Below are positions 2,611 through 20,410 of a DNA stretch of 21,625 nt, in pieces (the stretch's first letter is position 1; the number at the start of each line of letters is the position of its first letter). Location of the stretch: the IMG/VR virus record IMGVR_UViG_2563366928_000011. One strand, 5' to 3'. Under the pieces are notes generated by a model. It saw only the letters and a program-made list of their open reading frames with translations, ran no database searches and was not told the DNA's origin. Made by a program: the position numbers and the translations under genes. The DNA comes from a virus (Duplodnaviria; Heunggongvirae; Uroviricota; Caudoviricetes).

Positions 2611-2995
2611 ACGCGCGCGTACTTGTCGCAAAATATCAGGCAAAGGCCAGATTCAGAACGTCGTGATAACCACCAGCACAACATGAGATGTCATGTAACA
2701 CGATTTATCACATCAGATACATGTGATTGGTGTACCCGCATAAAACATCGTCATAGCGCGTCCTGTGCGCATATACGCCGATAATCAACACATCACCACC
2801 ACTCTGTCTCGTGTAGAGAACAGTTTCATGGTATCCCCCGCCATCGTGTGCGTACTGGTCGGACGTAGTTGCAAAAATTTTGCAACTGATACCCCTCGCG
2901 CGCGTACTGGTCACGAAATTGGTGTTTTGCTGTGGCAGTGATATCAGAAAAATCTTCCTGTTTCACATAAAGCGGATATGCGCGTACTGTAACGG
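2611..2995. repeat. Four dispersed copies of a GCGTACT(G/T)GTC motif in a noncoding stretch
   Basis: Read directly: GCGCGTACTTGTCG about 2615-2628; GTGCGTACTGGTCGG about 2848-2862; GCGCGTACTGGTCACG about 2898-2913; TGCGCGTACTGTAACGG about 2979-2995. Lies in the ORF-poor 2280-3126 interval. Confidence 0.35.
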
Positions 2996-3126
2996 CCCCA
3001 TCAACTGGGAGCGGATTTGAGCCCCGAATGTGTAGGCAATGTCACTTAACGTTTGTCGCATACCTTCCAGAAAAAGCGATTCATGAATAATAGGGGCATG
3101 AATGCCCGGCGTACCGGGCTTATTAG

Positions 3127-3975: not shown

Positions 3976-6702
3976 CTATTCCCATTCGCTAACATCTTTC
4001 ATGCCACTGAGGGTAGCTACAATCCCGGCCCTTGTCAGTTTCACGAATTCTTCAGCCCCAACGGCATCACGAATTGCTTTCATGGCAATTTTATTGGCCG
4101 AAAATCGTTTCTCTGCTGCGGCGATCGCTGCTGGTGATGCCCCTGCGCGCACTGCTTTTGTAGCTTCCTGAACGGCTTTCTCTATCGCATATCGACCACT
4201 TCTTGTCGCCCCAATCTTAGCCACAGCATTTCTTAGCGCGCCACCAGCAACCAAACCACTTATCGAACCAATTACACCACCGCCAAAGCCTCCAGCGATC
4301 GCACCTGACTGTTGAACTCCGTTCATAATCACGCCGACGATCTTTGGAAGGCCTGAATCGAGCGTTTTGAGAGCCTCAGTTGTTCTTCCCGTGCGCTCTA
4401 CGTATCGCTGCGGTCTGGTACTGGCTTTAGCGAGTACACCGAACTCTTTCATCATTCTACCGAGATCTGGCGCATGACGACTGATGGCGTTTACATTCTG
4501 CTGGGTCATGAGCTTGGCAAAATACTGGATACCTGACTCTTCACCGATTCCTCCCTTCTCTCCCTGCGCCACAGCATGCTGAAGAATAGATGCTATTGCA
4601 GGTTGGCGTTCTGCTTCCGGCAGCGCGGAGATAAGACGGTGAAAAGCTCCCGTTCCAGTGTTTGCGGATGCCTTAAGCGTATCGGCACCTTTTCTTACCA
4701 TAGCGTCTGATGCGAGATCTCGACCAAAAACAGATTCGGCATTTTGTTTGGCGATAATGTAACTTTTAGAGAGATCGTTAGCTTTCTGCCATTCTGTGAG
4801 GAAGTTTCCTTTTTCAGCCATGATGCGCATGTCATCAGTGATAGCTCTGCGCATTTCTCCGGCAATCCGGGCGGCATTGGCCTTACCTGCCCGGGTGTTT
4901 GCTTGTTCAGCATCAGCAAACTTAGTACGCCATGCCTTCATCCCGTCGAAGGTTATGCCGCCACCTTGGTTGTTGGCAGCCTGAAACTGTTTCATCTCCG
5001 GGCTGAGTGGAACATTGGCTGCTTTTTCTGCTTGGACGACAGCCATCCCATTACTCATTTTCATCCTTTCGCGTGGCATCGTGCTTCGCAGTTCTGCCCA
5101 TGCCATATTCTCTGCTGTTTTCATATCACTGAGGCTCGCGATGATGCGCTCTTTAATTGCTGCGCTTTTTTCTGATGCGCTTCCAGACTCAGCACCGAAA
5201 TCAGACAACTGCTTATTCAACTTTGAGGATATTTCATTGAAGGCCGTAAGGTGAGCATCCTGAACATTCCCAGGAGTTGATGCCAGAACACCTTCTGCTT
5301 GGGCAATTCCACGACTACCTGAGCGCATTCCAGGCGTCAGGGTGTTGATATTAATACCAGTGATTTTCGCCGCCTTAGCGACATCATCTCTGACGTTTGA
5401 TGCCTGCGATGCGATATGCTCTCGGCCTACGGCAGAACGCGCTGCTTTCGATACATCATTGGCGGTTTCCAGAGTATTTGCTGCCCCTAACACATGGCCT
5501 GATTGATTTGTATTACTCCGCAATACATCTCGCATTACGTCACTGGCTGTCTGTCCGCTCTTTATTAAAGCGCGTGCTCCTAGCGATCCTGCTAGGCCAA
5601 TACCTGTCTCTTTTGCTAGGTCTTCTGGGCTGATCTGCCCGTTCTTTTGGGCGTTCACCAATGTACCTGGCAGGTTTTCTGCCAACATACTAGCCACCTT
5701 TGTGGCCGCACGTTCAGCACGTGGAGCGTTGGCAACTGAAGAAGCTGCGGTAGCTGCCTTTCCTGCACCTAATCCTGTAATAAGGTAAGGTGCTAGCTGC
5801 TCACCAGCCTGCGCGTATGGATCTGTAGGTTGGTCTACTGGGCGAAAGACAGGTGATATGGGCGTGTATGTGCCATCACCCACACCAAGCTTCTGAGCTG
5901 CCCATGCTCCGGCTGATTGCGCCGCATTGACTACCCCCACGCCTGCGTCCATTACATCAAACGGTATATTAGCAATCCCTCTGGCCATCTGCTCTGGCGC
6001 AGCTTTCAGTCCTGGCGAAAGATATTCCATCTCAGGATTAAGGTTAGACTTGGCTACTTGCTGCTGCGGTTCCCCGGCATTTTCATCGGCGAGAAACTGA
6101 GCTCTTTTCTGCTCCCATGAACTGGCTGTTGGTAGTCCTGCTTCTATGTTCTTAAATTGCTGACGTTTTGCTTCCCATGCAGAAATATCTCCCACCTGAG
6201 AGATTTCTTTATCAAGCTCTGAGTAGTCAGGCTGCTGAAGATTGCGATGTTGACTGGTTTGTGCAAACTGCAAGATTTCACTGTCATCAGGGATTATTCC
6301 GGCATCTGCAAATTTACTTACGTAATTAGCCGTTTCATCTGGCAGTGTAGATTTACCGTTTCTGACGGCATTAATACGAGCATAGCCAGAATTATACCCA
6401 GCCAATGCCATACCTATATCACCAAATCGCTTCATTCCTTTATTGAGATGGTTTGCTGCGATATCCATTTGCTTTTCAAATGGCAGTGAGCGCGGATCTG
6501 TTCCACGATAACCAGCATCACTCATTACTGAGGGCATCAGTTGAGCAAATCCTCTAGCTCCTTTCGGTGACTCGGCACTTCCGTTACCACTAGATTCATT
6601 GCCAACTAATGTTTCCATCGTCCCTGATGGGAAACCATATTTTTCATCGAGATGACGGGAATAGGCTTTCTGTTTTTCTGTCAGTTGTGCCATCATTGCC
6701 AT
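3976..6702 (-). CDS. Large virion/ejection-type protein with N-terminal SLT lytic transglycosylase domain
   Basis: 908-aa ORF. N-terminus carries SLT-like motifs (GNESSGNGSAE..GARGFAQLMPS and ALAGYNSGYARI). Long Ala/Gly/Gln-rich helical remainder. Last gene of a four-gene cassette; start overlaps the stop of the upstream gene. Confidence 0.75.
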   Translation of the reverse strand: MAMMAQLTEKQKAYSRHLDEKYGFPSGTMETLVGNESSGNGSAESPKGARGFAQLMPSVMSDAGYRGTDPRSLPFEKQMDIAANHLNKGMKRFGDIGMALAGYNSGYARINAVRNGKSTLPDETANYVSKFADAGIIPDDSEILQFAQTSQHRNLQQPDYSELDKEISQVGDISAWEAKRQQFKNIEAGLPTASSWEQKRAQFLADENAGEPQQQVAKSNLNPEMEYLSPGLKAAPEQMARGIANIPFDVMDAGVGVVNAAQSAGAWAAQKLGVGDGTYTPISPVFRPVDQPTDPYAQAGEQLAPYLITGLGAGKAATAASSVANAPRAERAATKVASMLAENLPGTLVNAQKNGQISPEDLAKETGIGLAGSLGARALIKSGQTASDVMRDVLRSNTNQSGHVLGAANTLETANDVSKAARSAVGREHIASQASNVRDDVAKAAKITGININTLTPGMRSGSRGIAQAEGVLASTPGNVQDAHLTAFNEISSKLNKQLSDFGAESGSASEKSAAIKERIIASLSDMKTAENMAWAELRSTMPRERMKMSNGMAVVQAEKAANVPLSPEMKQFQAANNQGGGITFDGMKAWRTKFADAEQANTRAGKANAARIAGEMRRAITDDMRIMAEKGNFLTEWQKANDLSKSYIIAKQNAESVFGRDLASDAMVRKGADTLKASANTGTGAFHRLISALPEAERQPAIASILQHAVAQGEKGGIGEESGIQYFAKLMTQQNVNAISRHAPDLGRMMKEFGVLAKASTRPQRYVERTGRTTEALKTLDSGLPKIVGVIMNGVQQSGAIAGGFGGGVIGSISGLVAGGALRNAVAKIGATRSGRYAIEKAVQEATKAVRAGASPAAIAAAEKRFSANKIAMKAIRDAVGAEEFVKLTRAGIVATLSGMKDVSEWE

Positions 6703-8012
6703 CCCTTAAGTTTTGCCTGATAGTAACTTTCCGGCAGATAGCCATGTGCGGTCACATAATCCTTAACCAGTGAAGGATCCTGCAACAGCATTTTGGTATC
6801 AGTTTCTTCGTCCTTAGATTTGGTTACAGGAATACCGAGCCCGGCAATCTGTCGTTTCTGCATTCGAATAATTACGTCCTGCGCTTTATTCAACTCTCGC
6901 AAAAATGCCTCATTGCTGGTTGCTGACTTAATGCCATTTTGAGATTGCATAAGGGCAGCCCTTTCCCCTTCGGTTGGGTTAGAGCCAAAAGTCCCTTTGA
7001 GGCTAGGCAGAATAACCTTTAGGTTGTATTCATCAGCTTTGGCGCGTAGGCTTCGTGTGTCTTCTGCTACATCAGGAAGGAATCCAAACCCCAGCGTCAG
7101 GGGGTTATAGTTCTGCGAGCGGGTAACGGCCGAAGGATGTTTCCCTACAATTCCCGCCAGTTCATGACCCACTTCAAGCGCAGAGTTCAAGGAGTCGATG
7201 TTACCTGCAACAGTATTAATTTTATCGTTCATCTTCTCCACTTTCGCCTGCTGTACCTTGCTCAGTTCAGCATTGAGCTTGTCTCTCTCGATGTCATTTT
7301 GAGCACGTCCAAGTCGTGCTTTCAGAACCATTTCTCTCGTGCGTAGTTGGTTATCGGATAGGACTTTGAACTGCTCCATATCGAGACGTCGATTACCCTG
7401 TTCCGCATTAACCTGAGCATTATATGCGGATGTATCTGCGTTCTGCTGTGCAATGCTCTGCCCTTGCTGCTTCTCTTGAACACTAAAGTAACTATTTGGA
7501 TCAGCATGGAGGTGGATGAGGTCAGTGATTCTGTTGAATTCCTGTGGGTCATTCTGCCAAGACTGATAAACCTCTTCAGCAGGAAGACCAAATCGCTGTA
7601 ATACTGGATTTGCCTGCTGAATGGCCTTCTGCATGATCAGTGGATCTCCAGTTTGTGACGCAAGACGCAGATTCATGGCAGCGTCAGCGGTCTGTCGATT
7701 TTGCTCAGCATCAATGAATCCCATCTGTTTTTGAGAATCAGCCATAAACTGGGGATACTGGGCCATTAACTTCTGCACGCCAACACGATCATTATTAGCT
7801 ACCGCACTACCCAACCGTGCCTGATATTCTTTTAACTGCTGGGAAATTTGCGCCTGCTGATTAATCTCAGCAACGCCTCTTAGCCCCTGTAGCGCCATTA
7901 AACCTACGTTTGGCTGCTGCTGATACTGCACAGGCTGAGGAACGGAAGAACGAGGAGCATTATCATTTTGCGGTGCCATGCTAGGCAGCCCGCCAAGTTG
8001 CCATGTCGCCAT
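6693..8012 (-). CDS. Ejection/DNA-transfer-type protein, putative (P22 gp20-like by size and position)
   Basis: 439-aa ORF. Q/A/N-rich, predicted coiled-coil character. Tightly packed between the 225-aa and 908-aa genes. Assignment rests on architecture, not on a search. Confidence 0.6.
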   Translation of the reverse strand: MATWQLGGLPSMAPQNDNAPRSSVPQPVQYQQQPNVGLMALQGLRGVAEINQQAQISQQLKEYQARLGSAVANNDRVGVQKLMAQYPQFMADSQKQMGFIDAEQNRQTADAAMNLRLASQTGDPLIMQKAIQQANPVLQRFGLPAEEVYQSWQNDPQEFNRITDLIHLHADPNSYFSVQEKQQGQSIAQQNADTSAYNAQVNAEQGNRRLDMEQFKVLSDNQLRTREMVLKARLGRAQNDIERDKLNAELSKVQQAKVEKMNDKINTVAGNIDSLNSALEVGHELAGIVGKHPSAVTRSQNYNPLTLGFGFLPDVAEDTRSLRAKADEYNLKVILPSLKGTFGSNPTEGERAALMQSQNGIKSATSNEAFLRELNKAQDVIIRMQKRQIAGLGIPVTKSKDEETDTKMLLQDPSLVKDYVTAHGYLPESYYQAKLKGWQ

Positions 8013-8689
8013 TAGAATCCAAGCCCCCCAACAAGACCAATAAGCCCACCACCAATAGCGCCGGCCGCAGTTCCTATTCCAGGAACAACGGAACCAAGTT
8101 GCGCACCCGCTAAAGCGCCTGATGCTGCCCCACCAATACCACGCGCAAGACTGGATGGCTGCTGCGCCTGACCTGCACGAATAGCGCCAAGCCCCTGCAA
8201 GAGTTGTCCGGTATTATTGGCGTAGTTTTGCCCTGCCGTTGCCTGCCCTGATGCCGCATTCATCCCGACATTTAGCAGGTTTCCATAATTTTGCATTTGC
8301 CCACTGAGCCAATTGTTATAAAGCATGGGCGCAATGGAAGATAACTGGTTACTGGTAGCTGTTGAGCCAAGCCCCCCGGTAGCTTCTGCTGAGACAAGGT
8401 TCTGATAACGGGCCTGATCTGCCTGTGTTTTATATAAACCAGAACCAAAGAAATCATTCGCGGCTTTATTCTGCCCTTCCAGAGTCATCAGTCCTTGCAG
8501 TTGTTGTAAAGCAGGCAATCCGACTTCTGCATACGGCTTGAGATTATTCATCACCGTATTCCACTGCTCGCGCTGCAAATCAATTGCCTGCTGCTGGGCC
8601 TTCGCCTGAGCTTTAGAGGCACCACCATCACCGCCTTTTTCGTATACGGCACGATTGAGATGTTTATGAGCTATATGGGTAATTAACAT
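8012..8689 (-). CDS. Ejection/DNA-transfer-type protein, putative (P22 gp7-like by size and position)
   Basis: 225-aa ORF. Gly/Ala-rich with hydrophobic Gly-zipper C-terminus (GGLIGLVGGLGF). ATG at 8689 overlaps the upstream stop as ATGTTAA. Confidence 0.55.
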   Translation of the reverse strand: MLITHIAHKHLNRAVYEKGGDGGASKAQAKAQQQAIDLQREQWNTVMNNLKPYAEVGLPALQQLQGLMTLEGQNKAANDFFGSGLYKTQADQARYQNLVSAEATGGLGSTATSNQLSSIAPMLYNNWLSGQMQNYGNLLNVGMNAASGQATAGQNYANNTGQLLQGLGAIRAGQAQQPSSLARGIGGAASGALAGAQLGSVVPGIGTAAGAIGGGLIGLVGGLGF

Positions 8690-9144
8690 TCGCTGAATTC
8701 CTTATATTGTTGCCGAGTTAACTGATAAAGCGTTACGCCGACGGGTTTACCACATCTGATATAAGCATCATCAAGGTGACCAACACGGGTAGCGCCAAGC
8801 AAACGGATAATTGCCCGTCCATATTTTGTGGTGTCAGGAACCATAGTGATGCTGTTAAGGAATGGTGAGTTTTCGAGAAGCCACTTGCAGAATAATCGAT
8901 GCCCTTGCAGTGCATATTCACCACGGAATCCGGGGTCGTACACCGCATGGCATTCAACAACGCTATGCCAGAAGTTACGCACTTCATGAACGCCAGCCAG
9001 CACTAATCCTTCGTAGATGCCGAGATATACCGCATCAGGCTTGATGTAGTACGTGTGCCCCGGCTCAACAATATTTTCGGTATTGCCTGGCTCGTTAAGA
9101 AAGGCCTGTAATCGCACAGGGTTATCAATAAATTTTAGTTCCAT
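8683..9144 (-). CDS. Hypothetical protein, first large gene of the ejection-like cassette (gp14-like position)
   Basis: 153-aa ORF with protein-like composition, 16 nt downstream of the small RHH-like ORF. No motif recognised. Confidence 0.55.
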   Translation of the reverse strand: MELKFIDNPVRLQAFLNEPGNTENIVEPGHTYYIKPDAVYLGIYEGLVLAGVHEVRNFWHSVVECHAVYDPGFRGEYALQGHRLFCKWLLENSPFLNSITMVPDTTKYGRAIIRLLGATRVGHLDDAYIRCGKPVGVTLYQLTRQQYKEFSEC

Positions 9145-11058: not shown

Positions 11059-13413
11059 TTAAAAAACATCATAACCCCCCATACCGATCAGACGGGCAAA
11101 CGCAGCCTGTAGAACTCCGACCTCTGGTAGTTCGTAGAACACGCCATTCCCTCGGTCTGGTCTTCCATGCTTCACCAGCCCCATTTGTGCAAGTGATTTA
11201 CCCAGTAGTGATCTGGCAGCTGGTTCTTTAAGCTTTTCCCCACGCTCAAGCGACCACGCTACAAACCGACTAACCATATCCTTTGCAAACAAACGGACTT
11301 CGCCATTAAACGGAGGTTCATTGATTAGCTCGCCATAAAGAAACAATTCAACGCCAGACAGCCCCAGCAAGATTTCTTCACGTAAGGCATCGGTCTGTGG
11401 CGCTCGTTGAGGGTCAAAACCTGAGAGATCCACCCCTTTAAGATGCCAAAGCAACTTTGCGGCACCGCCATCATTAAGCCAACTGTACAGCCGATCAAAA
11501 TACTCCCGGCTCTGTGCTTTTTCAGGAGATGGCTCAAGCACGAGATAGCGACGCTCTCTTATCCCTGCCTGTAATACCTGTGTGCTGTTACTGGCAAATA
11601 TCAACCGGGCAAAATTCGGCATTGGTTCAGCATCAATTCCCTTGCGCTCAAGGTTAAACGTCGGTTCGCTAATAATCGCTTTAAGTCTGTCAGCTTCAGA
11701 CGGCTTGTGGATCGTCACTTCGTCAGCAAATACCAGTAGCTTGTTAGCAAGTATTGAATTGAAGCGCCCTGAAATATGTCCCGCCCCGTTAATGTGGGCG
11801 GCGTACTGCCCCAGTATTTGCAGCAGCGGTTTAACCGTTGTGCCTTTCCCTGTGCCCGGGACAGATTTCATCACGATTGCCACGGACGGTTTTTCATCAG
11901 GCTTTTGGATAATGTGCGCCATCCACTGGATAAGATATTGGTATGCCTCTTCATTACCGGCACAGACAACCTGCAACAGGTGATTAAGGTATACCGTGCA
12001 ATCTCCTTCAATTGGTTCCAGTGCCAGCCCCTCATACAGATTAAAAACATCGTCAGGGCATTTGTCTGGTACTGGATAAAATCCTACGCCTCCTGGCTTG
12101 TAGTTCTTCCCACTCCATGACAGCCACGCCGATCCCGCCAGCTTTCTGGCGACTCTCGGTTTATGATGAAAATAATGCTGAAATTGTGATAAATCCTCGA
12201 AAACGTGCGATACACCGCCGGTTTGAGAAGGCTTTAGCGACACCACCTTGTGTTTCCCGCCGATGGTGACATGCGTAAACGTCCGGTTGATTTCTTCGAG
12301 GACAGCAATTTCATCATCGCTTAACACCTCGCCAGAACTGATCTCATTCAGCGCCCCGACTGACTGTTTGTGATTTTTCACCTGCGCCCCTTTCCCCCGT
12401 GGCTGGTACATCGAATCTTTAAATGCTGCTGTGGCTGCCGCCAGCCCGTGTTGTTGGTGATAGTCGTTCCAGTCGGCTTTATAGTCAGTCGGTGGCAGAG
12501 ACACCCTGCCAGCTACGGAAATAGCGGCCCTCTCTGCGGCATCTTTCCCCGTGTTGATCCCTCCACTTTCTGAGTCTCCTTGCTGGTGATCGTTATCTGC
12601 GGCAATGATGATTTGTGCCTGCGGATATGTTCTGCGCATGACTTCCGCTACTGGCAACAGGTTGCCAGCGTCGATTGCTGCCACTGTCATTGCGTCAGGG
12701 CGAATTAAATGGCACGACAGGGCGGTAGCCACCCCCTCAGCAATTATGATGCTGTGAGGTCGTTTCTGTGCGTTTATGGCGTGATATGCCCCCCGCTTTG
12801 CCGAACCTGTCAGGAGTCTTTTTTCACCATGTGAGGTAATAGTCTGTGCTGCTGTGACTGCGCCGGATTTATCCACCAGCGCCAGCAACAGAGATCCATC
12901 GGGCAACACGGGGAATGTAAAATCACCTACCCCTTTCGCAACCAGATAATCAGATTTGCCGTTTACAGCCTTTCTGCGCATGTCATCAAACTGACGGGAA
13001 AACGTATCCCGTCTTTGTTGTTCGTCCTTCTCTGCCCTTTTCAGGCGCTCCTGTTCGCGTCGCTGGCGCTCGGTTTCCAGTTGTTCCCGTTTCTGGCTGG
13101 TGGCTTCTGGTGTTTCCGTTGTCCGGTAATCAATACCCAGAACATCAGCGGCAAGAAGCGCCGCCTCTGTTGTGTCGCAGTTATTTACGCGTTTAATTAA
13201 ATCCAGCCCATCACCAGCGCCGCACTGATTACAGATGAAGCTACCGCGCCCGTTGTCATCGAACCGGAATCGATCTTTTCCCCCACATGCAGGGCAGGGA
13301 GCATGACGGCGCGGAGAGTCAGGGACATTTATGTTCAGGCAGCCCAGCACATGAGGCCAGTTGTTTTCAGACGCACTGATAACCTGACGGATAAGATCAA
13401 TGTTTCGCATCAC
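11059..13413 (-). CDS. P4-family primase-helicase (zinc-binding + TOPRIM + P-loop NTPase)
   Basis: 784-aa ORF. Zn-ribbon CPACGGKDRFRFDD..FICNQCG. TOPRIM signature IIIAEGVATALS and AADND. Walker A VPGTGKGT in the C-terminal half. Likely start is ATG at 13410 after a GGGG RBS. Confidence 0.9.
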   Translation of the reverse strand: MMRNIDLIRQVISASENNWPHVLGCLNINVPDSPRRHAPCPACGGKDRFRFDDNGRGSFICNQCGAGDGLDLIKRVNNCDTTEAALLAADVLGIDYRTTETPEATSQKREQLETERQRREQERLKRAEKDEQQRRDTFSRQFDDMRRKAVNGKSDYLVAKGVGDFTFPVLPDGSLLLALVDKSGAVTAAQTITSHGEKRLLTGSAKRGAYHAINAQKRPHSIIIAEGVATALSCHLIRPDAMTVAAIDAGNLLPVAEVMRRTYPQAQIIIAADNDHQQGDSESGGINTGKDAAERAAISVAGRVSLPPTDYKADWNDYHQQHGLAAATAAFKDSMYQPRGKGAQVKNHKQSVGALNEISSGEVLSDDEIAVLEEINRTFTHVTIGGKHKVVSLKPSQTGGVSHVFEDLSQFQHYFHHKPRVARKLAGSAWLSWSGKNYKPGGVGFYPVPDKCPDDVFNLYEGLALEPIEGDCTVYLNHLLQVVCAGNEEAYQYLIQWMAHIIQKPDEKPSVAIVMKSVPGTGKGTTVKPLLQILGQYAAHINGAGHISGRFNSILANKLLVFADEVTIHKPSEADRLKAIISEPTFNLERKGIDAEPMPNFARLIFASNSTQVLQAGIRERRYLVLEPSPEKAQSREYFDRLYSWLNDGGAAKLLWHLKGVDLSGFDPQRAPQTDALREEILLGLSGVELFLYGELINEPPFNGEVRLFAKDMVSRFVAWSLERGEKLKEPAARSLLGKSLAQMGLVKHGRPDRGNGVFYELPEVGVLQAAFARLIGMGGYDVF

Positions 13414-13768
13414 CGTACCCCACGTGGTCTATAGCGTTTGCGATATGGCTAACCAGCATCTGCCACTTGGTTATTCCGTAATCAGTCAGCATGCCATCAT
13501 TGTTTAGCCACATATCAAATTCAGCGGTTGTCGCAAGTTTCCACTTATCGCCGTGGACAGTCCTCATTGCTGGGTACATGAATGCGCAAATCAGATCACA
13601 AACATCTGACGGCTTCAGAGATGTAGTAATGGTGCGTCCCTCTGGCGTCTGAATTGCCATTTTCTCTTCACCAGTAGAATGAAGGTTATGAATCCACACA
13701 GCACCAGCAATCTTTGCCACCTGCTCTCCGATTGCGGAGCTAAGCGCCATTTCTGCATTTTCACGCAT
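13397..13768 (-). CDS. Hypothetical protein (123 aa)
   Basis: ATG at 13768 preceded by GGGAGG and overlapping the upstream stop. Stop overlaps the primase start. Confidence 0.55.
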   Translation of the reverse strand: MRENAEMALSSAIGEQVAKIAGAVWIHNLHSTGEEKMAIQTPEGRTITTSLKPSDVCDLICAFMYPAMRTVHGDKWKLATTAEFDMWLNNDGMLTDYGITKWQMLVSHIANAIDHVGYGDAKH

Positions 13769-14102
13769 GAGAACCTCCCGCTACAGTTGCGCCCATGTCA
13801 TTAACCATGCTTTGCCATATCTCACGCCCGACGCCAGTCAATCCGTCCTTAGTGACGCAACGCTCAAGAAGCTCGATCCCCACGGTTTCCCACTGCGGGT
13901 AGAACACTTTCATGGCTGCCAGTGTGTAGCTATCGATCAGGCTGCGAACGCCTTTTACTCCATTGACGATTTCCACACGTACGGCCTCGCCGTCCGCATC
14001 AACCATGAAATAGTCCCCGCCGCTGGTGGAGGTAATGTGGTTATACAGTGCCGACGCATACTTATTTGCCAGCGCATTCAGTCGGAAATTTTTAGTAATC
14101 AT
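13761..14102 (-). CDS. Hypothetical protein (113 aa)
   Basis: ATG at 14102 preceded by GGAG. 10-nt gap to the upstream gene. Confidence 0.55.
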   Translation of the reverse strand: MITKNFRLNALANKYASALYNHITSTSGGDYFMVDADGEAVRVEIVNGVKGVRSLIDSYTLAAMKVFYPQWETVGIELLERCVTKDGLTGVGREIWQSMVNDMGATVAGGSHA

Positions 14103-14112
14103 GGCTCCATCC

Positions 14113-14715
14113 TCAGTGCGTCACTGGTTCCGCTGGCATGCCGTTTTCATTCAGTTCAGCTATAAAGCTGTTGTGAAGTTCAGCAAGCGTTTCACGACCA
14201 AATGGAGTCAGTGCTCCTTGTTCCACATCCATCATGGCTCTGTAGAAAATGATGGCGCGTTCTGTGCCAGACTCGATGCCAAAACGTTCTATCATCGCTC
14301 CCTCAATGTTGTTTGCCATAGCGAGGCGCTCTGCTACTGGATACAGCGGCATGGCGACGATGCCGTTGGAATAAACAGCCACTTCGGAAGGATTGCCAGT
14401 ATCATCAATGATGCTGACAGTGCCGTTTTCCTCTCTCATTTCCAGCATGAATACTGTTGCGATCAGCCATCTCCACATAATGACGTTATGCTGTGATGTG
14501 TAATCGAAATATCCCTGGTTGCCGCCATCGGCAATAGCGAGATGTATTGACATACCTTCATCTGGTTTATCGTCATAATCCCCGGCATCCAGACGATTTA
14601 CGGCATCAATATATGAGACGGCCTCAACGCGTTCTGTCATGCCATCGTTGCTGCGGTACATGATGTTTACGCCGTCAGGCGTTGCTTCTGCATGGAAAGT
14701 TAAGAAATTATTCAT
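14113..14715 (-). CDS. Hypothetical strongly acidic protein (about 200 aa)
   Basis: Start revised from the track ORF (14820) to ATG at 14715: GAGG RBS and ATGAATAA overlap with the upstream stop. Many Asp/Glu, very few Lys. Confidence 0.5.
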   Translation of the reverse strand: MNNFLTFHAEATPDGVNIMYRSNDGMTERVEAVSYIDAVNRLDAGDYDDKPDEGMSIHLAIADGGNQGYFDYTSQHNVIMWRWLIATVFMLEMREENGTVSIIDDTGNPSEVAVYSNGIVAMPLYPVAERLAMANNIEGAMIERFGIESGTERAIIFYRAMMDVEQGALTPFGRETLAELHNSFIAELNENGMPAEPVTH

Positions 14716-14929
14716 GTTTCGCCTCGCCTGAATGATTCTGTAACTCATATTTGCCCAACAATTCGTCCGCTTCCTGAATAGCTTCTGGTACGCCATTGAG
14801 CAGTGACATAACCGCGCCAATCATTAACTTGTCTCTGTTGCTGGGGCTGGCCCCTTCAAGCCAGAACCCTAAAACAGTCTGAACCTGTTCGATGCGACAT
14901 TGCGCTTCAATGAGCTGGATGTTGGTCAT
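14708..14929 (-). CDS. Hypothetical small protein (73 aa)
   Basis: ATG at 14929 overlaps the upstream TGA (ATGA). GGAG RBS. Confidence 0.5.
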   Translation of the reverse strand: MTNIQLIEAQCRIEQVQTVLGFWLEGASPSNRDKLMIGAVMSLLNGVPEAIQEADELLGKYELQNHSGEAKHE

Positions 14930-15189
14930 TTCGCACTCTCCACATCGATTAAACCGATATCTATCAGGGAGGTAACTTTTTGTAGCCAGCTATTGATTAC
15001 TGTCGCCTGTTCCCCTCCCACCGAGGGAACAATCTCATTCATCACATGAACCAGACCTGTGCGCGCTCTGGTAAGCCGTTCAGTCGCGCAATCTGCGGGA
15101 GTGAATGTGTCTGGATATGGCTCTTCACGCCCCAGCAATGATTCAATTTCCAGCTCACACGGATGACGATAAATTAAGTTGATATTCAT
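14926..15189 (-). CDS. Hypothetical small acidic protein (87 aa)
   Basis: ATG at 15189 overlaps the upstream TGA. GGGGGTGA RBS. Confidence 0.5.
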   Translation of the reverse strand: MNINLIYRHPCELEIESLLGREEPYPDTFTPADCATERLTRARTGLVHVMNEIVPSVGGEQATVINSWLQKVTSLIDIGLIDVESAK

Positions 15190-15380
15190 TTTTCACCCCC
15201 AAGAATTACCAGCTCGGCACGGGCATCGTTAACCAAAGATGAGCACGCTTTAATCGCATCCACGACATCAGCAGCGTCCATTTCTTCAGCCGAAAGACTG
15301 ACAGCAACCAGGACAGCCGCTGCTTGCTCGATTAATTGAAGTGCGGACGTAAGGCGAGGGGTATTAATTGAGTTATTCAT
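15186..15380 (-). CDS. Hypothetical small protein (about 64 aa)
   Basis: Start revised from 15437 to ATG at 15380: GGGGG RBS and ATGAATAA overlap with the stop of the upstream reading frame. Confidence 0.45.
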   Translation of the reverse strand: MNNSINTPRLTSALQLIEQAAAVLVAVSLSAEEMDAADVVDAIKACSSLVNDARAELVILGGEK

Positions 15381-16440
15381 TGGTTGCCCCCGTTTTTCCT
15401 GGCATTTCGCCACCTTCCAGCAGGAAATGAACGTCACGAACGGCGAGATCCAATATCGCGAGTAACGCCTTCAGTCTTTCGTCTCGTGAGGGAGAGTTGC
15501 TCACCAGAATGTCGTTAATCACTTCTGTCAGTGTGATGATCTGGCTTGTGCGTTCGAGGGGATCCATATGCACATCGTAGGTTTTAATCATGTGCCACCT
15601 CCATGCGGATACGACCAGCAAAAAAGCAGATGTGATCGCGCACCAGAGAACGGCGAGCATCGCGTTCAGACTCGGCAGCAATATGATGAATTTTGGCGGT
15701 AATTGTCGGGCAATCGCGGCGAACTGCGGCGATAATCCAGATAAATTGCGGTTTTTGGGTAGGGGTAGTAGCCAGCATGTGGCAGCCTCCATTCGATAGC
15801 ATGTAACGCTACCACCGGAAACGCCAATTTCGCTGGTGGTAGCCCAGACAGGGTTGGCGTAACCGGCTCGAATGGATACCGGCGCTTCCGAAGAAGCCCC
15901 TGCCTGAGCCACCATTGATTGACAAAGGCGCTGGATTATACACCAACGCCCAAAAAATGGGTGAGTCAGACCTACGACATAAAAAAAGACGCTCGGCGCG
16001 TCATATGTCGCCATTCGATTTACCAGGACGCCAATCCCGGCACCCGTTTTATGAGGTGCCTTATAACCATAAACCGTGTTGCCGCATAACGGCAAGCTCT
16101 TTTTTATGGACTCCGAAAACTCACTATTGGAAGAACCAGAAGCACAGTACATCGCGCTCATTTCGTTAACGTCACGCGCGTGGACGAATGTTTTTGTGGA
16201 GTCACTACACGAGCGGAAGACATCATCTACGACCAGAAATTTTCTGGCGCAGCCGCTGACCTTCTCAAGGCTAATATCATCGCCCGAGATTTCTGGTATG
16301 GTTAAGGCATCCGTTCCGACCACCAGCAAATGATAAACTTTGCTTGTATCTGCTGTATTAATGCCTGACTTTGCCGTCATATTTCTGGATTTTGGCGACA
16401 TGCCAGCCAGTGAAAATGTCTTCTTCTGGACGGGTATCAT
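15373..16440 (-). CDS. Hypothetical protein; long ORF of uncertain internal structure
   Basis: ATG at 16440 with GGAGG RBS and ATGA overlap with the upstream stop. First ~170 residues look protein-like. Residues ~170-283 are W/C/S-rich (junk-like). Last 72 aa are again protein-like with their own GGAGG RBS (ATG 15591). Confidence 0.4.
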
Positions 16441-16616
16441 TGGTTAACCTCCGCGAACTCCTTCATGAAACGCGCCAGCGGTTGTACGCATGGCGATTGA
16501 TACCCGTCGCGATAAAACGTCACTCGGTTGTGAGACACGCTTTCGACAGTAACGAGTGCTCCGTGGGCATCTTTGTAGCGTTTTTGTGGTTGTGGTGTTC
16601 CTGTTGGCTTAGACAT
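16437..16616 (-). CDS. Hypothetical small protein (about 59 aa)
   Basis: Start revised from 16703 to ATG at 16616: GGAGG RBS and ATGTCTAA overlap with the antirepressor-like gene stop. Confidence 0.45.
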   Translation of the reverse strand: MSKPTGTPQPQKRYKDAHGALVTVESVSHNRVTFYRDGYQSPCVQPLARFMKEFAEVNQ

Positions 16617-17442
16617 TGAGCGCCTCCAGACGCTTGGCGAGCCAGCGTTGCGACAGGCGGGTGAGTTCTCCTTTGCGCTGCTCATATTCCATGCCCATAT
16701 CAATTAACGTGATATTGGTGCTTTCGAGATATGAGAGGTGCTCAAGCTGTTCTGCGTTCATATGGTCGCGAGGTTCGCCAGAATAGCCATTTATCCGCGC
16801 CCACTGCTTAGCAGTTAGCCCACCAAGAACGATACGAGAAATCATATTGCTCTCGTTTGTGTAGTGGTGTTGCTGCGTCGTTTTCCCCATCTCGGCACGG
16901 GCCATATTCAGCGCATCGCACATTGGCTTAAAGTTGTTTGCGGCACTGATACGGGCTTTTAGCTGGCGACGATAGCGGGCGGCGATTTCAGGCACGCTAC
17001 GCTGTAATTCTTCCTCGCACTGGATGAAATAACGGCGGATAGCGCGACCCTGATCATTGCGTTCGATCATTGCCAGTTCTTTCGCCATTCCGACACTTAA
17101 CAGATAGTCTTTGCCGGGTCTGCCAGAGTGCTTTATCTTGCTGTAAGCCGCGCCATTCGGGCTTTTCCCCAAATTTGGGGAAATTGTTTTATGGACTGAG
17201 TAATCGTGCCCAATGGTGAAGTCATATTCAGAGATGCGATCAGTGATCCATGTAGAGAAGTCTTTTCCCACGCCCAACGCTTTGTGTAACGCTTTTGCGC
17301 TAACAATATTGGTTTCACGCCCACCGATATGACCAGGAATAACCGGGACAATTGCGGCAAATTCATTACCGTTAATTGTGCTCAGAGAGGCGTTCAGATG
17401 AGGGGCGGCCTCAGAAATTAATCTGCTTTTTTCGATGTTCAT
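16609..17442 (-). CDS. Phage antirepressor-like protein (AntA/KilA-type N-terminal domain)
   Basis: 277-aa ORF. KDYLLSVGMAKELAMIERNDQGRAIRRYFIQCEEEL is typical of phage antirepressor/Bro-N-KilA-type domains (from memory). GGAG RBS before ATG at 17442. Confidence 0.65.
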   Translation of the reverse strand: MNIEKSRLISEAAPHLNASLSTINGNEFAAIVPVIPGHIGGRETNIVSAKALHKALGVGKDFSTWITDRISEYDFTIGHDYSVHKTISPNLGKSPNGAAYSKIKHSGRPGKDYLLSVGMAKELAMIERNDQGRAIRRYFIQCEEELQRSVPEIAARYRRQLKARISAANNFKPMCDALNMARAEMGKTTQQHHYTNESNMISRIVLGGLTAKQWARINGYSGEPRDHMNAEQLEHLSYLESTNITLIDMGMEYEQRKGELTRLSQRWLAKRLEALNV

Positions 17443-17454
17443 TTTCAGTCTCCG

Positions 17455-17886
17455 TTAGGCGGCGTTAAACGCGTCCGGGTAGAGTTTCAGAATGTCGGCA
17501 ATTTCCTGCTGAGAAAGTCCGTTGTGATCATTTATGTTCGCAAGATGGTTAATATGAGTGATCACTTTCAGAACATCACCACGGCAGGAGAAACGGTAGC
17601 GAAGGTGTGTTCCGATACCATCAGGATTCTTTTCGTCGATACGCTCCAGAGTGATTCCAAGCTGGCGTTCTAACTCTGTTGCATAGTTACGACCAGAAGA
17701 CAGACGGCAGTAGCGAAGAATGTCATTTTCTGTCCATCCCTCTATACCAGTACGCAGCATATAGACTCTGGCACGATGCTTTTTCGGTGTGCGCTTTGGT
17801 GCTTGAAGGGATTTTGTAAGGGGCGTAACATCAGATACACGAATATCTGAATTAGCCGCCTGTAATGGGCGGTTTTTCTTTTCCAT
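17455..17886 (-). CDS. Hypothetical protein (143 aa), basic N-terminus
   Basis: ATG at 17886 overlaps the AlpA stop (TGATG). GAGGTGG RBS. Confidence 0.55.
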   Translation of the reverse strand: MEKKNRPLQAANSDIRVSDVTPLTKSLQAPKRTPKKHRARVYMLRTGIEGWTENDILRYCRLSSGRNYATELERQLGITLERIDEKNPDGIGTHLRYRFSCRGDVLKVITHINHLANINDHNGLSQQEIADILKLYPDAFNAA

Positions 17887-18089
17887 CAGGCCACCTCGTC
17901 TCTAGATTCTAATATACACTTCTCAATCCATTCATCTATTTCAGACTCAACAAAAGCAATTGCCCGACTTCCAATTTTTACCTGTTTAGGGAACCTCCCC
18001 TGACTAATAAGACGATAAATCCATGCTTTGCTATAACCAGTTCGCCTTTGAACTTCAGAGAGACGAATTAATGAATTGTAATTAGCCAT
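17886..18089 (-). CDS. alpA: AlpA-family transcriptional regulator / excisionase-like
   Basis: 67-aa ORF. IRLSEVQRRTGYSKAWIYRLISQGRFPKQVKIGSRAIAFVESEIDEWI is the classic AlpA/phage-excisionase HTH pattern. First gene of the leftward operon. Confidence 0.8.
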   Translation of the reverse strand: MANYNSLIRLSEVQRRTGYSKAWIYRLISQGRFPKQVKIGSRAIAFVESEIDEWIEKCILESRDEVA

Positions 18090-18376: not shown

Positions 18377-18607
18377 GTAGAAGGCTCAATACACCTTCGT
18401 TTATAAAAGAGCGATTGCCCTTCTCCAGGGCTAACTGTTAAATAGCAATCCTCTGTGAGTTTTTATCAATCTACTCCCCTATACTTTAGTAAACCTCTGT
18501 ATACTTGTGGGTCTTCCCCTGTTGTGGTGGGTGGTACATAATTGAGTGATTTTCAAACACCACACAGTACCTTTATGGTGTCTCTTTTTACATGAGAGGG
18601 AATTCTT

Positions 18608-19126
18608 ATGAGTGTGCCGCAAACAAAAGCTGAACTGCTTTTAGCTATTGATAAAAATTTTAGTAAATTAATTAGTTACCTCAACACAATCCCACCAGAA
18701 ATTACTTCAGATAAATCAATGGACGGACACGCCAAAGGAACGGAGATGAGTGTTCGTGATCTCGTTTCGTATCTGCTTGGATGGAATGCTCTTGTTGTAA
18801 AGTGGATCGCTTCTGATGCTAAAGGTCTGCCTGTCGATTTTCCGGAAACTGGCTATAAATGGAATCAGCTTGGCCTTCTTGCTCAAAAATTTTACTCAGA
18901 TTACAGTGAGTTAAGTTATGAGTTGTTAGTAGCTGAACTTCAGACTGTAAAAAATGAGATTGTGAACCTTATTAATGATCGTACCGATGATATTTTGTAT
19001 GGAAGACCATGGTACACAAAATGGACGATGGGGAGAATGATCTCATTTAACACATCTTCGCCTTACGCCAACGCTAATGGAAGATTAAGAAAGTGGGCAA
19101 AAAATAATAATATCAGTTTAAAGTAA
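18608..19126 (+). CDS. ClbS/DfsB-family (DUF1706) four-helix-bundle protein
   Basis: 172-aa ORF. Matches remembered ClbS-type motifs (GHAKGT..SV.DLVSYL.GW, WN.LG.LAQKFY, GRPWYTKWT.GRMI.FNT.SPY). Lower GC than surroundings. Confidence 0.7.
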   Translation: MSVPQTKAELLLAIDKNFSKLISYLNTIPPEITSDKSMDGHAKGTEMSVRDLVSYLLGWNALVVKWIASDAKGLPVDFPETGYKWNQLGLLAQKFYSDYSELSYELLVAELQTVKNEIVNLINDRTDDILYGRPWYTKWTMGRMISFNTSSPYANANGRLRKWAKNNNISLK

Positions 19127-19144
19127 GCTTCAGAATGAAATTAT

Positions 19145-20365
19145 ATGGACGAAAAATCCCTCTATGCCCATATCCTTAACCTGACTGCACCATGGCAGGT
19201 TAAATCCCTTACCCTCGATGAAAATGCAGGTTCCGTTACTGTTACAGTCGGAATTGCTGAAAATACTCAGTTAACCTGTCCGACCTGCAGGAAATCCTGT
19301 TCTGTTCACGATCACCGACATCGTAAATGGCGCCACCTTGATACCTGCCAGTTCATGACATTAGTAGAAGCCGATGTTCCCCGCGTTATGTGCCCGGAGC
19401 ATGGCTGCCAGACTCTGCCTGTACCGTGGGCAGGTTCCGGCAGTCGGTACACTCTGCTGTTCGAATCGTTCGTGCTCTCATGGCTTAAAATCAGCACCGT
19501 TGATGCGGTCAGAAAACAACTTAAACTTAGCTGGAATGCCGTTGACGGCATCATGACCCGCGCGGTTAAGCGAGGCCTGTCGCGGATTAAAAAGCCTTTA
19601 TCAGTGCGTCATATGAATGTAGACGAAGTCGCCTTTAAAAAAGGGCATAGGTATATAACCGTGGTATCTGATCGCGACGGGCGGGCACTGGCATTAACCG
19701 ATGATCGTGGCACAGAGAGTCTTGCCAGCTATCTCCGTTCGCTTACTGACAGTCAGTTGTTGGCCATCAAAACACTGTCGATGGACATGAATGCGGGCTA
19801 TATAAGAGCAGCGCGTATCCATTTACCCAATGCGGTCGAGAAAATCGCCTTCGATCGCTTCCATGTGGCGAAGCAACTGGGCGAAGTGGTTGATAAAACC
19901 CGCCAGAATGAACATCCGCACCTCCCTGTTGAAAGTCGTCGTCAGGCCAAAGGTACCCGCTTCCTGTGGCAGTACAGCGACAAATGGATGACTGAGTCCC
20001 GGCAGGAAAAGCTGATGTGGTTGCGGGAACAGATGCAACAGACAAGCCAGTGCTGGACACTGAAAGAGCTGGCAAAAAATATCTGGGATCGCCCCTGGAG
20101 CACAGAACGCAGGAATGACTGGTTGCAGTGGATATCGCTGGCGTCTGAATGTGATGTGCCGATGATGAAAAACGCAGCGAAAACCATTAAAAAACGGTTA
20201 TACGGAATACTGAATGCAATGCGTCATCGCGTCTCGAATGGAAATGCGGAGGCGCTGAACAGCAAGATCAGACTGCTGAGGATAAAGGCCAGGGGATACC
20301 GAAACCGGGAACGCTTTAAACTGGGAGTTATGTTCCACTATGGGAAACTGAATATGGCGTACTGA
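19145..20365 (+). CDS. ISL3-family transposase
   Basis: 406-aa ORF. N-terminal C2C2 zinc-finger region (CPTCRKSC...CPEHGC) followed by a DDE-type core typical of ISL3 transposases. Bounded by the inverted repeats above. Confidence 0.85.
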   Translation: MDEKSLYAHILNLTAPWQVKSLTLDENAGSVTVTVGIAENTQLTCPTCRKSCSVHDHRHRKWRHLDTCQFMTLVEADVPRVMCPEHGCQTLPVPWAGSGSRYTLLFESFVLSWLKISTVDAVRKQLKLSWNAVDGIMTRAVKRGLSRIKKPLSVRHMNVDEVAFKKGHRYITVVSDRDGRALALTDDRGTESLASYLRSLTDSQLLAIKTLSMDMNAGYIRAARIHLPNAVEKIAFDRFHVAKQLGEVVDKTRQNEHPHLPVESRRQAKGTRFLWQYSDKWMTESRQEKLMWLREQMQQTSQCWTLKELAKNIWDRPWSTERRNDWLQWISLASECDVPMMKNAAKTIKKRLYGILNAMRHRVSNGNAEALNSKIRLLRIKARGYRNRERFKLGVMFHYGKLNMAY

Positions 20366-20410
20366 GTCTTCCCACCATGATCGGGGAAGACCCATACTTG
20401 TCCAGTTGTT

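Follow-up and report, generated by a model that had tools for sequence, protein, structure and literature searches.

Overlapping genes between alpA and the primase as the probable early/replication operon of a P4-like satellite of Escherichia coli

Between alpA and the primase in a viral DNA window of 21,625 nucleotides (the whole stretch that was analysed), almost all gene starts on the minus strand lie within or next to the preceding stop. A sequence-only reading took this run for a leftward operon of fifteen genes marked by a recurring ATGnnTAA junction, which raises the question of what kind of operon this is and whether its junctions carry a signal. The cluster lies on an island that is matched at 100% by one in an E. 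coli chromosome, carrying int, alpA and primase and integrated at tRNA-Thr next to proA. Of the genes of canonical P4-like satellites, those for tyrosine integrase, AlpA/Vis and alpha-type primase-helicase are present. The overlapping run is nothing out of the ordinary: it is the early/replication operon of an E. coli phage satellite of the P4-like kind, and its centre is the known P4 eta/kil/CI immunity design, of which this is one further member. We consider it probable that the whole alpA-to-primase region is the regulatory and replication operon of an E. coli P4-like satellite (an island of the Gram-negative PICI type) that follows the P4 'left operon' design. The figure of fifteen genes does not hold, since RefSeq annotates 11 CDS in the identical locus and our own count is 13 ORFs (two nested in a longer one) and two RNA genes; these two small-RNA genes and an internal promoter had been taken for protein-coding genes. 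The genes from alpA to the long central ORF are as follows.

17886–18089, minus strand: alpA, first gene of the cluster, 67 aa (Pfam Phage_AlpA, 7.4e-20)
17455–17886, minus strand: ORF of 143 aa, named 'PM1773 family' by RefSeq
16609–17442, minus strand: AntA/AntB antirepressor-family gene, 277 aa (Pfam AntA, 2.6e-21)
16437–16616, minus strand: DUF4222 gene, 59 aa (Pfam DUF4222, 5.8e-25)
15373–16440, minus strand: eta-like ORF, 355 aa, annotated 'ash family protein', a P4 eta-type leader ORF

The alpA gene holds the position of P4 vis; a consensus scan found no promoter upstream of it. The PM1773-family ORF has homologues in 17 loci (73–99% identity) and gave no match in Pfam, PDB or PADLOC. 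Inside the eta-like ORF, between 16095 and 15832, the supposedly plain coding chain is broken by a promoter, a terminator and two RNA genes, followed by a target site.

16066–16095, minus strand: predicted PLE-like sigma-70 promoter, TTGCCG-18 nt-TATGGT
15982–16059, minus strand: isrK / P4 seqA-type leader RNA (Rfam RF01394, 67.1 bits; gathering score 50 bits)
15832–15919, minus strand: C4 / P4 CI-type antisense immunity RNA (Rfam RF01695, 79.5 bits; gathering score 45 bits)
15776–15796, minus strand: seqC-like target TCGAATGGA, overlapping the GGAGG Shine-Dalgarno sequence and ATG (15778) of icd

IsrK corresponds to seqA, and C4 to CI, in P4-like prophages (PMC3632133, PMC4825925), and the pair lies inside the 'ash' ORF here as it does in P4 and 13 related loci. 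The promoter, which we infer to be active, lies 6 nt upstream of the isrK 5' end; 14 of the 15 loci keep it, and its P4 counterpart in this position reads TTGCCT...TATAGT. The isrK terminator, a hairpin followed by U7 (15981–16002) that the consensus scan also picked up, is conserved with compensatory changes, and both promoter and terminator are kept in P4.

The C4 match covers the full-length two-hairpin fold (model positions 1–87 of 87) and carries the specificity loop UAUCCAUUCGAG at 15867–15878. The seqC-like target is a 9-nt perfect complement of this loop, 35 nt past the C4 3' end, and a seqA-like target lies within isrK at 16009–16020; the loop sequence UCCAUUCGA is complementary both to UCGAAUGGA at the icd Shine-Dalgarno sequence and to UCGAAUGG in isrK. 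The same arrangement is found in all 15 loci compared, where the loop of C4 hairpin 2 has 8–15 nt of complementarity to a site 33–38 nt downstream that covers the icd Shine-Dalgarno sequence. Across these loci, P4 included, the loop co-varies with both of its targets, with at least 11 distinct loop sequences each accompanied by matching targets.

The long ORF around these elements resembles P4 eta in that it encloses the promoter, seqA/isrK and CI/C4 and starts within the upstream stop, here as an ATGA overlap with the end of DUF4222. It also spans icd in another frame and includes a small ORF, orf72, in frame as its C-terminus, running 72 codons beyond the icd stop. P4 has a Kil/Icd frame nested in frame at the eta C-terminus, an arrangement shared by L010–L017, L021 and L022, but in the ORF studied here the icd ATG (15778) falls in a different frame, and given this the P4 model may not be transferable in detail to this lineage.

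A more novel reading is that the eta leader of this E. coli lineage has been remodelled into a three-layer overlapping switch with a captured pac region that doubles as packaging signal, a reading that we regard as somewhat unlikely. On this account the leader ORF, which crosses icd in another frame and continues in its own frame into the next small gene, would make two translation routes converge on the ATGATTAA/ATGAATAA junctions, with eta read-through serving transcripts from the upstream promoter and termination-reinitiation at icd serving those from the internal promoter. The ORF would also have acquired, in its 5' part, the pac-site region from the small-terminase gene of a P22-like helper and, if so, the regulatory leader would double as the packaging signal of the satellite.

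It is less likely still that the 355-aa ORF is a genuine Ash/Bro-family regulatory protein whose amino acid sequence matters, with the RNA matches as secondary features of a real gene. In each of the 15 loci exactly one frame, of 217–387 codons, runs open through isrK and C4, the ORF has a good Shine-Dalgarno sequence and an ATGA-coupled start, P4 Eta is reported to be translated, and PHROG families label such ORFs as regulators. However, the sole conserved 'protein domain' (Pfam PF10554, Phage_ASH) is limited to aa 124–232, which is exactly the isrK–C4 stretch, and it is confined to the RNA stretch likewise in 10 other loci, including P4 eta. Comparison with a second immunity allele showed differences without codon-position bias (35/31/29, against 18/16/43 for the downstream gene orf200), with 23 synonymous and 72 non-synonymous changes. 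Furthermore, the N-terminal parts vary in length and sequence between loci and lack a domain, and the frame passes through icd out of frame in this lineage. On the other side, the P4-type reading draws on the open frame across both RNAs, which could be partly inherited rather than selected. The remaining genes of the P4-type operon are listed below.

15584–15778, minus strand: gene for an Icd/Kil-like inhibitor of host cell division, 64 aa from ATG 15778 (NCBIfam NF033153, phage_ICD_like)
15373–15591, minus strand: orf72, ATG overlapping the icd stop (ATGATTAA), GGAGG 7 nt upstream
15186–15380, minus strand: orf64, start overlapping the eta-like/orf72 stop as ATGAATAA (RefSeq annotation)
14926–15189, minus strand: orf87, ATGA junction
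14708–14929, minus strand: orf73, ATGA junction (phrog_20558)
14113–14715, minus strand: orf200, start overlapping the orf73 stop (ATGAATAA; phrog_1515, 5.7e-47)
13761–14102, minus strand: orf113, preceded by a 10-nt spacer, GGATGGAGCC (phrog_37628, 7.6e-50)
13397–13768, minus strand: orf123, start overlapping the orf113 stop (ATGCGTGA; RefSeq annotation)
11059–13410, minus strand: P4 alpha-type primase/helicase, last gene of the chain (Pfam Zn_Ribbon_Prim, Toprim_3, DUF5906; RefSeq annotation)

The icd-like match scores 69.9 bits (E = 1.3e-19; curated cut-off 25 bits), and the gene, at 71–98% identity in 16 loci, has its P4 homologue in the C-terminal (Kil) portion of eta. Together with the AntA/AntB antirepressor-type protein, this division inhibitor fits the label of an early anti-host or anti-helper module given to the cluster earlier; the accompanying picture of many anonymous small proteins does not fit, the centre being a P4-type RNA immunity switch made up of PLE-like promoter, isrK/seqA leader, C4/CI RNA and eta-like ORF.

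Among the downstream ORFs, orf200 has 550 homologues across Enterobacteriaceae and divergence biased to third positions; orf113 has homologues in 11 loci, orf87 in 8 other genera (26–54% identity) and orf64 in locus L019 (61% identity). Two ORFs are clade-restricted and our tests did not establish that they are coding: orf72 is confined to the E. coli/Salmonella clade, where diversity is too low to prove coding, and orf123 is limited to close relatives (L006 and L009), with orf113 elsewhere meeting the primase directly via ATGcgTAA.

It can be seen from the coordinates that 10 of the 12 protein junctions from alpA to the primase overlap, the remaining two being short spacers of 12 nt before antA/B (CGGAGACTGAAA) and 10 nt before orf113, each bearing a GGAG ribosome-binding site; this bears out the earlier claim of near-universal overlap. 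The 8-nt junctions previously singled out are also present on the minus strand, ATGAATAA at 14708–14715 and 15373–15380, ATGATTAA at 15584–15591 and ATGTCTAA, where the DUF4222 start overlaps the antA/B stop, at 16609–16616, and we found a fifth, ATGCGTGA, at 13761–13768. The other overlaps on this strand are three of the ATGA type (16437–16440, 15186–15189 and 14926–14929), one TGATG (17884–17888), in which the alpA TGA stop shares 1 nt with the next ATG, and a 14-nt overlap (13397–13410) between the primase ATG at 13410 and the orf123 stop. Shine-Dalgarno-like motifs lie 5–12 nt upstream of starts in the cluster. Ribosome-binding sites of the GGAGG type had been ascribed to most starts; GGAGG itself is found 7–12 nt upstream of five of them, and the others have GGAG, GAGG or G-rich runs.

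The ATGnnTAA string is, however, no special signal. In one of the two usable phases no overlap can be shorter than eight nucleotides, and ATGnnTAA, ATGA and TGATG are simply the shortest overlaps that the genetic code permits in the two possible reading phases. ATGNNTRA is not enriched in the window (39 matches against 31.9 ± 5.1 in shuffles), and five of its ten minus-strand matches within the region are not junctions. The ATGTTAA at 8683–8689, cited as a further case of the same type, does occur there on the minus strand, but it is a 7-nt overlap in the phase of ATGA and TGATG.

The lack of enrichment would also be expected if the overlaps were a neutral by-product of compaction and start/stop replacement, with no regulatory role and each gene initiating independently on its own Shine-Dalgarno sequence. 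Simulated neutral start/stop replacement reproduces the genome-wide excess of 4-nt and 1-nt overlaps (PMC3887535), every start here has its own Shine-Dalgarno-like motif, and the 8-nt icd/orf72 junction looks like a former ATGA junction that has lost 1 nt. Against this, only about 15% of co-directional gene pairs overlap in typical prokaryotic genomes (PMC6728339), and 10 of 12 is a marked excess (binomial P = 2.8e-7). Moreover, the same kinds of junction are found at homologous positions in 18 related loci whose sequences have diverged, as the reading of a coupled operon required. TRATG is present after alpA in 18 of 18 loci, the GGAG-bearing spacer before antA/B in 14 of 16, and ATGA at the starts of orf87 and orf73 in 14 of 14 and 12 of 12, respectively. 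The 8-nt antA/B–DUF4222 junction is kept in 9 of 9 loci while its middle bases vary (tc, tt, cg, ac, aa), and the orf73/orf200 junction is ATGA in most other genera. The geometry is thus kept across more than 10 enterobacterial genera in related islands while flanks and 'nn' bases change, and is therefore not due to chance. Since homologous P4 and P1 junctions are also reported to be functionally coupled, we judge a purely neutral origin to be improbable. Least probable of all, and by our estimate very unlikely, is a single leftward operon of some 15 small protein genes forming a strongly coupled early anti-host/anti-helper module without internal regulatory elements. In its favour are the real overlaps and Shine-Dalgarno motifs, the presence of Icd-like and AntA/B-type genes and the conserved junctions. 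Against it, RefSeq has only the 11 CDS, the chain is broken by two Rfam RNA genes, a terminator and a conserved promoter, and what matches the 'ash' protein family is those RNAs in translation.

Tight stop/start overlaps with an upstream Shine-Dalgarno sequence are an accepted signature of termination-reinitiation coupling (PMC6728339), and the junctions here combine an overlap or very short spacer with a Shine-Dalgarno sequence inside the upstream gene. In the P4-type operon, such coupling most likely puts everything as far as the primase under two control points, the RNA-masked start of icd and the upstream entry at alpA. Transcripts begun at the internal promoter (16095–16066) would pass through the isrK/seqA leader and its terminator to the C4/CI-type RNA which, once processed, would pair through its hairpin loop with the leader site and with the Shine-Dalgarno sequence of icd, the first downstream gene. 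As orf72, orf64, orf87, orf73, orf200, orf113, orf123 and the primase each start inside, or no more than 10 nt from, the previous stop, blocking the icd start should prevent translation of the entire mRNA. Such a transcript would be exposed to premature termination and no primase would be made, which would amount to satellite immunity. On transcripts from a promoter upstream of alpA, ribosomes would be passed from alpA through PM1773, antA/B and DUF4222 to the eta-like ORF and would read across promoter, terminator and both RNA genes. This translation should suppress termination and bring ribosomes to the same ATGAATAA junction (15373–15380), turning on the small genes and the primase. We infer promoter activity, RNA processing, actual coupling and polarity (Rho-type) termination from P4 and P1.

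The P4 left operon runs PLL-vis-PLE-eta/kil-seqA-CI-seqC-epsilon-orf151-cnr-alpha. Common to both elements are an AlpA/Vis-type first gene, a long eta-like ORF ATGA-coupled to the upstream gene (vis/eta in P4), promoter, seqA/isrK leader and CI/C4 RNA inside eta, a seqC-type target on the Kil/Icd-like Shine-Dalgarno sequence, and a primase as last gene; P4 has 8-nt overlaps of its own at eta/epsilon and epsilon/orf151. Unlike P4, the island has three extra genes between alpA and eta (PM1773, antA/B and DUF4222), an eta of 355 rather than 199 aa that is fused in frame to a further small ORF, and no detectable homologues of epsilon, orf151 or cnr among its downstream small genes. Its annotated products include P22-type ejection genes, an Abi gene and perC, whereas sid, delta and psu are not on that annotation list.

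In the P1/P7 immI operon (c4-icd-ant), likewise, a C4-family RNA is cut from the same transcript whose downstream ribosome-binding site it blocks, and the genes behind depend on translation of the first one, which encodes an Icd-type division inhibitor, icd being required for ant expression in P1 (PMC8201110). The coupled downstream gene there is the antirepressor ant, whereas here the AntA/B-type gene lies upstream and the chain ends in the primase. Salmonella Gifsy-1 isrK-orf45-anrP also has an isrK-family leader and terminator upstream of translationally linked small genes, and a stable RNA downstream of IsrK, but Gifsy-1 is a lambdoid prophage in which IsrK acts in trans by opening the orf45 ribosome-binding site (PMC4825925).

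Gram-negative PICIs are divided into integration, Bro, replication and late zones (Mageeney et al. 2023, PMC10111431). The island shares with them int-alpA, a Bro zone that has AntA and Phage_ASH hits and contains the C4/isrK RNAs, and a primase/DUF5906 replication zone followed by captured phage late genes, its own late-gene cargo being a P22-type ejection cassette. The long ORF also contains, at 16186–16292 on the plus strand and thus antisense to the operon, a segment that stems from gene 3, the small-terminase gene, of P22-like phages. Its identity is 91% to terS nt 268–374 of phages CurroJimenez/IME10 and 86% to P22 gene 3, and the stretch homologous to the P22 pac site lies within it; other island variants have a bare P22-type pac-like 22-mer at this position.

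The 355-aa ORF of the leftward cluster that is annotated as an 'ash family protein' has Phage_ASH (PF10554) as its sole Pfam domain, and this domain (aa 124–232, window 15745–16071) covers exactly the stretch from isrK to C4. In published work, IsrK is equated with the seqA RNA of P4 and C4 with its CI RNA (PMC3632133, PMC4825925). The features of this region, all on the minus strand, are:

15373–16440, eta-like ORF, annotated as 'ash family protein' (355 aa)
16095–16066, PLE-like internal promoter, TTGCCG-18 nt-TATGGT, 6 nt upstream of the isrK 5' end
15982–16059, isrK, within the 'ash family' ORF (Rfam, 67.1 bits)
16020–16009, seqA-like site
15832–15919, C4 antisense RNA, within the 'ash family' ORF (Rfam, 79.5 bits)
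15867–15878, C4 loop
15796–15776, seqC-like target with Shine-Dalgarno sequence and ATG
15584–15778, Icd-like gene, in a frame other than that of the eta-like ORF (NF033153)

PF10554 also maps exactly onto isrK and C4 in 10/10 related loci, P4 eta among them; as a family it is therefore, for the most part, a description of translated RNA genes. RefSeq naming of the same DNA varies, from a 355-aa 'ash family protein' to a truncated pseudogene plus an Icd-like gene. We conclude that the sole conserved domain of the 'ash family protein' results from translating two regulatory RNA genes and a promoter. The main value of this result is corrective, the RefSeq/Pfam annotation being spread over more than 1,000 E. 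coli genomes.

The PLE-like promoter sequence is conserved in 14/15 loci, with a P4 counterpart at the same place (TTGCCT...TATAGT), and the isrK terminator hairpin and its U7 tract are also conserved, with compensatory changes present. A scan for a consensus sigma-70 promoter upstream of alpA gave none that was convincing. An inverted repeat, TTGCCGCATAACGGCAA (16079–16095), overlaps the -35 element of the minus-strand PLE-like promoter; on the plus strand a T-run comes after it, an arrangement that is terminator-like for antisense transcription. Alternatively, the repeat could be an operator.

The RNA regions of the window, P4 and 13 further loci were compared. In all of them the hairpin-2 loop of C4 has two complementary sites, one 33–38 nt downstream of the RNA, overlapping the Shine-Dalgarno sequence of the icd-like gene, and another within the single-stranded part of isrK. 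No fewer than 11 distinct loop sequences were found, each with matching targets of its own. The loop/target pairs of these 15 loci define 11 or more immunity specificities. Their co-variation, like the conserved promoter and terminator, speaks for a functional RNA switch. Relative to E. coli copies that are 89–91% identical, nearly all divergence of the window lies within 16080–15781, where differences are distributed flatly over the three codon positions (35/31/29), compared with 18/16/43 in the small gene orf200. This block looks like an immunity-allele swap.

Despite the flat codon-position spectrum, exactly one frame, of 217–387 codons, is open across both RNAs in 15/15 loci, in a constant register relative to C4. 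In this the window matches the arrangement reported for P4 eta. The part of PMC10111431 that deals with Forti et al. (1999) describes eta as enclosing a constitutive promoter, seqA and CI, Kil as a truncated Eta that is produced on read-through, and full-length Eta as translated from the upstream promoter only. We place P4 eta at 2740–3339 of the P4 locus, with an ATGA overlap with vis at its start and the Kil/Icd-like part in frame. The window extends this design, with alpA, PM1773, antA/B and DUF4222 chained by a 1-nt overlap, a 12-nt spacer and an 8-nt overlap, and DUF4222 overlapping the eta-like ORF by 4 nt. The eta frame of P4 and most other genera stops at the same codon as icd/kil, but that of the window and its E. 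coli relatives runs on. Here the icd ATG follows the Shine-Dalgarno sequence at a spacing shorter by 1 nt, which puts icd out of frame with eta. In the window, eta takes an alternative frame through icd, enters orf72 in frame and stops at 15373; the icd/orf72 junction (GGAGGTGGCACATGATTAA) is the post-icd junction of other genera (GGAGGTGGCAGCATGA) minus one base. The sequence ATGATTAA is therefore the meeting point of two possible translation routes, eta read-through and icd termination–reinitiation.

The sequence-only reading had described the cluster as a fifteen-gene operon with a recurring ATGnnTAA junction; the gene count finds no support, RefSeq having 11 CDS between alpA and the primase gene. 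Every motif occurrence that it listed is present on the minus strand (ATGAATAA at 14708–14715 and 15373–15380, ATGATTAA at 15584–15591, ATGTCTAA at 16609–16616, and ATGTTAA at 8683–8689), and Shine-Dalgarno-like motifs lie upstream of essentially all starts. ATGTTAA, which had been counted as the same junction type, is 7 nt long, in the ATGA phase and distinct from the 8-nt type, and a fifth 8-nt junction, ATGCGTGA at 13761–13768, had been overlooked. The other junctions from alpA to the primase gene, on the minus strand, are:

17884–17888, TGATG junction
16437–16440, 15186–15189 and 14926–14929, three ATGA junctions
13410, primase ATG, with a 14-nt overlap
two GGAG-bearing spacers, of 12 nt and 10 nt

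Taken together, 10/12 protein junctions overlap. In most prokaryotic groups the overlapping share of co-directional gene pairs is about 15% (PMC6728339); against this background our count gives P = 2.8e-7. The string ATGNNTRA occurs 39 times in the window compared with 31.9 +/- 5.1 times in shuffles, and half of its minus-strand matches within the region are non-junctions; it was accordingly rejected as an enriched sequence motif. The overlap geometry is more than chance, whereas the string is not. Enumeration of the possible overlaps showed that 2 nt and 5 nt are impossible, and therefore 8 nt is the minimum in one reading phase, with 1 and 4 nt the shortest in the other. Since 9/10 overlaps in the region are minimal for their own phase, ATGnnTAA is no dedicated signal. 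Of all overlaps genome-wide, about 45% are 4 nt long and about 15% are 1 nt long (PMC3887535). The share of 8-nt overlaps here (5/10) is on the high side, its significance hinging on the background frequency of the 8-nt class. Start/stop overlaps in themselves are textbook. Tandem paralogy of orf72, orf64 and orf73 as the source of the repeated junctions was rejected, as BLASTP similarity among them is nil.

Conservation was assessed in 14 loci from an orf200-homologue search (Escherichia, Kluyvera, Scandinavium, Shimwellia, Kosakonia, Enterobacter, Lonsdalea, Klebsiella, Cedecea, Atlantibacter and others) and four diverged E. coli copies. Gene order is kept: alpA, PM1773, antA/B, (DUF4222), RNA region, icd, variable small ORFs, orf200, (orf113), primase.

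Junctions at homologous positions in related loci. For orf64 of L009, the 'orf355N' rows and some icd rows, where the nearest stop is in the wrong frame, annotations were used instead.
alpA/PM1773, TRATG, 18/18 loci
antA/B/DUF4222, ATGnnTAA with nn = tc, tt, cg, ac or aa, 9/9 loci
orf87 start, ATGA, 14/14 loci
orf73 start, ATGA, 12/12 loci
orf113/primase, ATGcgTAA (ATGcgTAG in L020), 9 loci

At the start of orf200, ATGAATAA is confined to the E. coli clade and most other genera have ATGA; in P4, vis and eta are joined by ATGA, and the eta/epsilon and epsilon/orf151 pairs overlap by 8 nt. The same junction types at homologous positions indicate that junction geometry is conserved across genera, and on this point the sequence-only reading, which had proposed conservation in related islands as its own test, survives. 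The start of orf123 is ATGCGTGA (13761–13768), and in relatives that lack this gene the primase start is ATGCGTAA, right after orf113; orf123 (junctions 13761–13768 and 13397–13413) looks like an insertion that duplicated the junction.

By analogy with the left operon of P4 and the immI operon of P1, like which the locus would work, the most likely mechanism is a two-entry coupled chain under the C4-type RNA. To the observed anatomy, family matches, co-variation and conservation it adds promoter activity, RNA processing, coupling and polarity, which we infer. Pervasive coupling would make the whole chain, down to the primase gene, dependent on two entry points. On transcripts from the internal promoter, the icd start site would be the only entry and would be masked by the C4-type RNA; the overlapping downstream genes of the untranslated transcript would then have no efficient initiation, and the transcript would end prematurely, as in P4 and P1, giving immunity. 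On transcripts from upstream of alpA, ribosomes would be handed along the chain and through the eta-like ORF, where they would override the terminator and arrive at orf64 and the genes behind it. The overlap chain is best read as the wiring by which one antisense RNA governs the replication genes of the satellite. Promoter, leader, RNA loop, two targets and entry points together provide a concrete, testable map for a common enterobacterial satellite family.

For the small ORFs, Pfam and NCBIfam matches were nil, PHROGs hits were of unknown function only and PADLOC gave nothing meaningful; orf200 and PM1773 had no match in the PDB. The orf72 search returned only near-identical or frameshifted E. 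coli/Salmonella sequences, whose synonymous and non-synonymous counts are uninformative on coding.

The region 13397–18089 matches a chromosomal locus of E. coli isolate AF14 at 100% identity and is present at 80% coverage or more in 437/5,426 complete E. coli genomes. In the AF14 record the element is bounded by a tRNA-Thr gene adjoining proA and by an integrase remnant, and contains a tyrosine integrase, alpA, a primase/DUF5906 gene, P22-type DNA-ejection genes, an Abi gene and perC. This identity, site and gene content therefore indicate a P4-like satellite island of the Gram-negative PICI type. The published zone plan of Gram-negative PICIs fits, and C4/isrK matches within Bro-zone genes are noted there. 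The island differs from canonical P4 in that sid, delta and psu are not annotated, the small genes are different and eta is remodelled. Further features of the window are:

249–536, PerC-family regulator gene, and 1257–2279, AbiD-type abortive-infection protein gene (PADLOC AbiD, 6.9e-58), cargo at the island's far end
3976–9144, P22-type DNA-ejection cassette (DUF2824 gene, two ejection-protein genes, lytic transglycosylase domain protein)
18608–19126, DUF1706 gene, and 19145–20365, ISL3-family transposase, within a 1,885-bp insertion

The middle gene of the cassette (6693–8012) is intact in the window and frameshifted according to the annotation of the near-identical AF14 record. Between int and alpA, the Rfam int-alpA RNA (RF02996) is found in L005 (685–751), L008 (346–412) and six other loci; the int/alpA module of the window has none at gathering score.

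A 107-bp plus-strand segment, 16186–16292, lies inside and antisense to the eta-like ORF. Its identity is 91% with nt 268–374 of the small-terminase gene in P22-like coliphages and 86% with gene 3 of P22, and the homology extends to the part of the gene in which the P22 pac site lies (AAGATTTATCTG; PMC10996546). In its right-hand part, the window and the E. coli variant L005 follow different phage terS alleles. Upstream of the RNA region, at the corresponding position, two other loci carry the bare 22-mer GAAGATTTATnnGnnGTCGTTA of the P22 gene-3 pac region (L008 3470–3491, L019 3429–3450, plus strand of the loci), with flanking terS homology absent and in the orientation opposite to the window's fragment. 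Together with the P22-type ejection genes, these sequences suggest mimicry of the pac site of a P22-like helper, that is, a putative packaging signal; if functional, it would point to P22-like phages as helpers.

The window corresponds to the AF14 locus plus the 1,885-bp ISL3/DUF1706 insertion (18509–20393), which lies immediately 3' of the integrase gene, ~420 nt upstream of alpA, with an 8-bp duplication at its flanks; the rest of the window is 99.97% identical to AF14.
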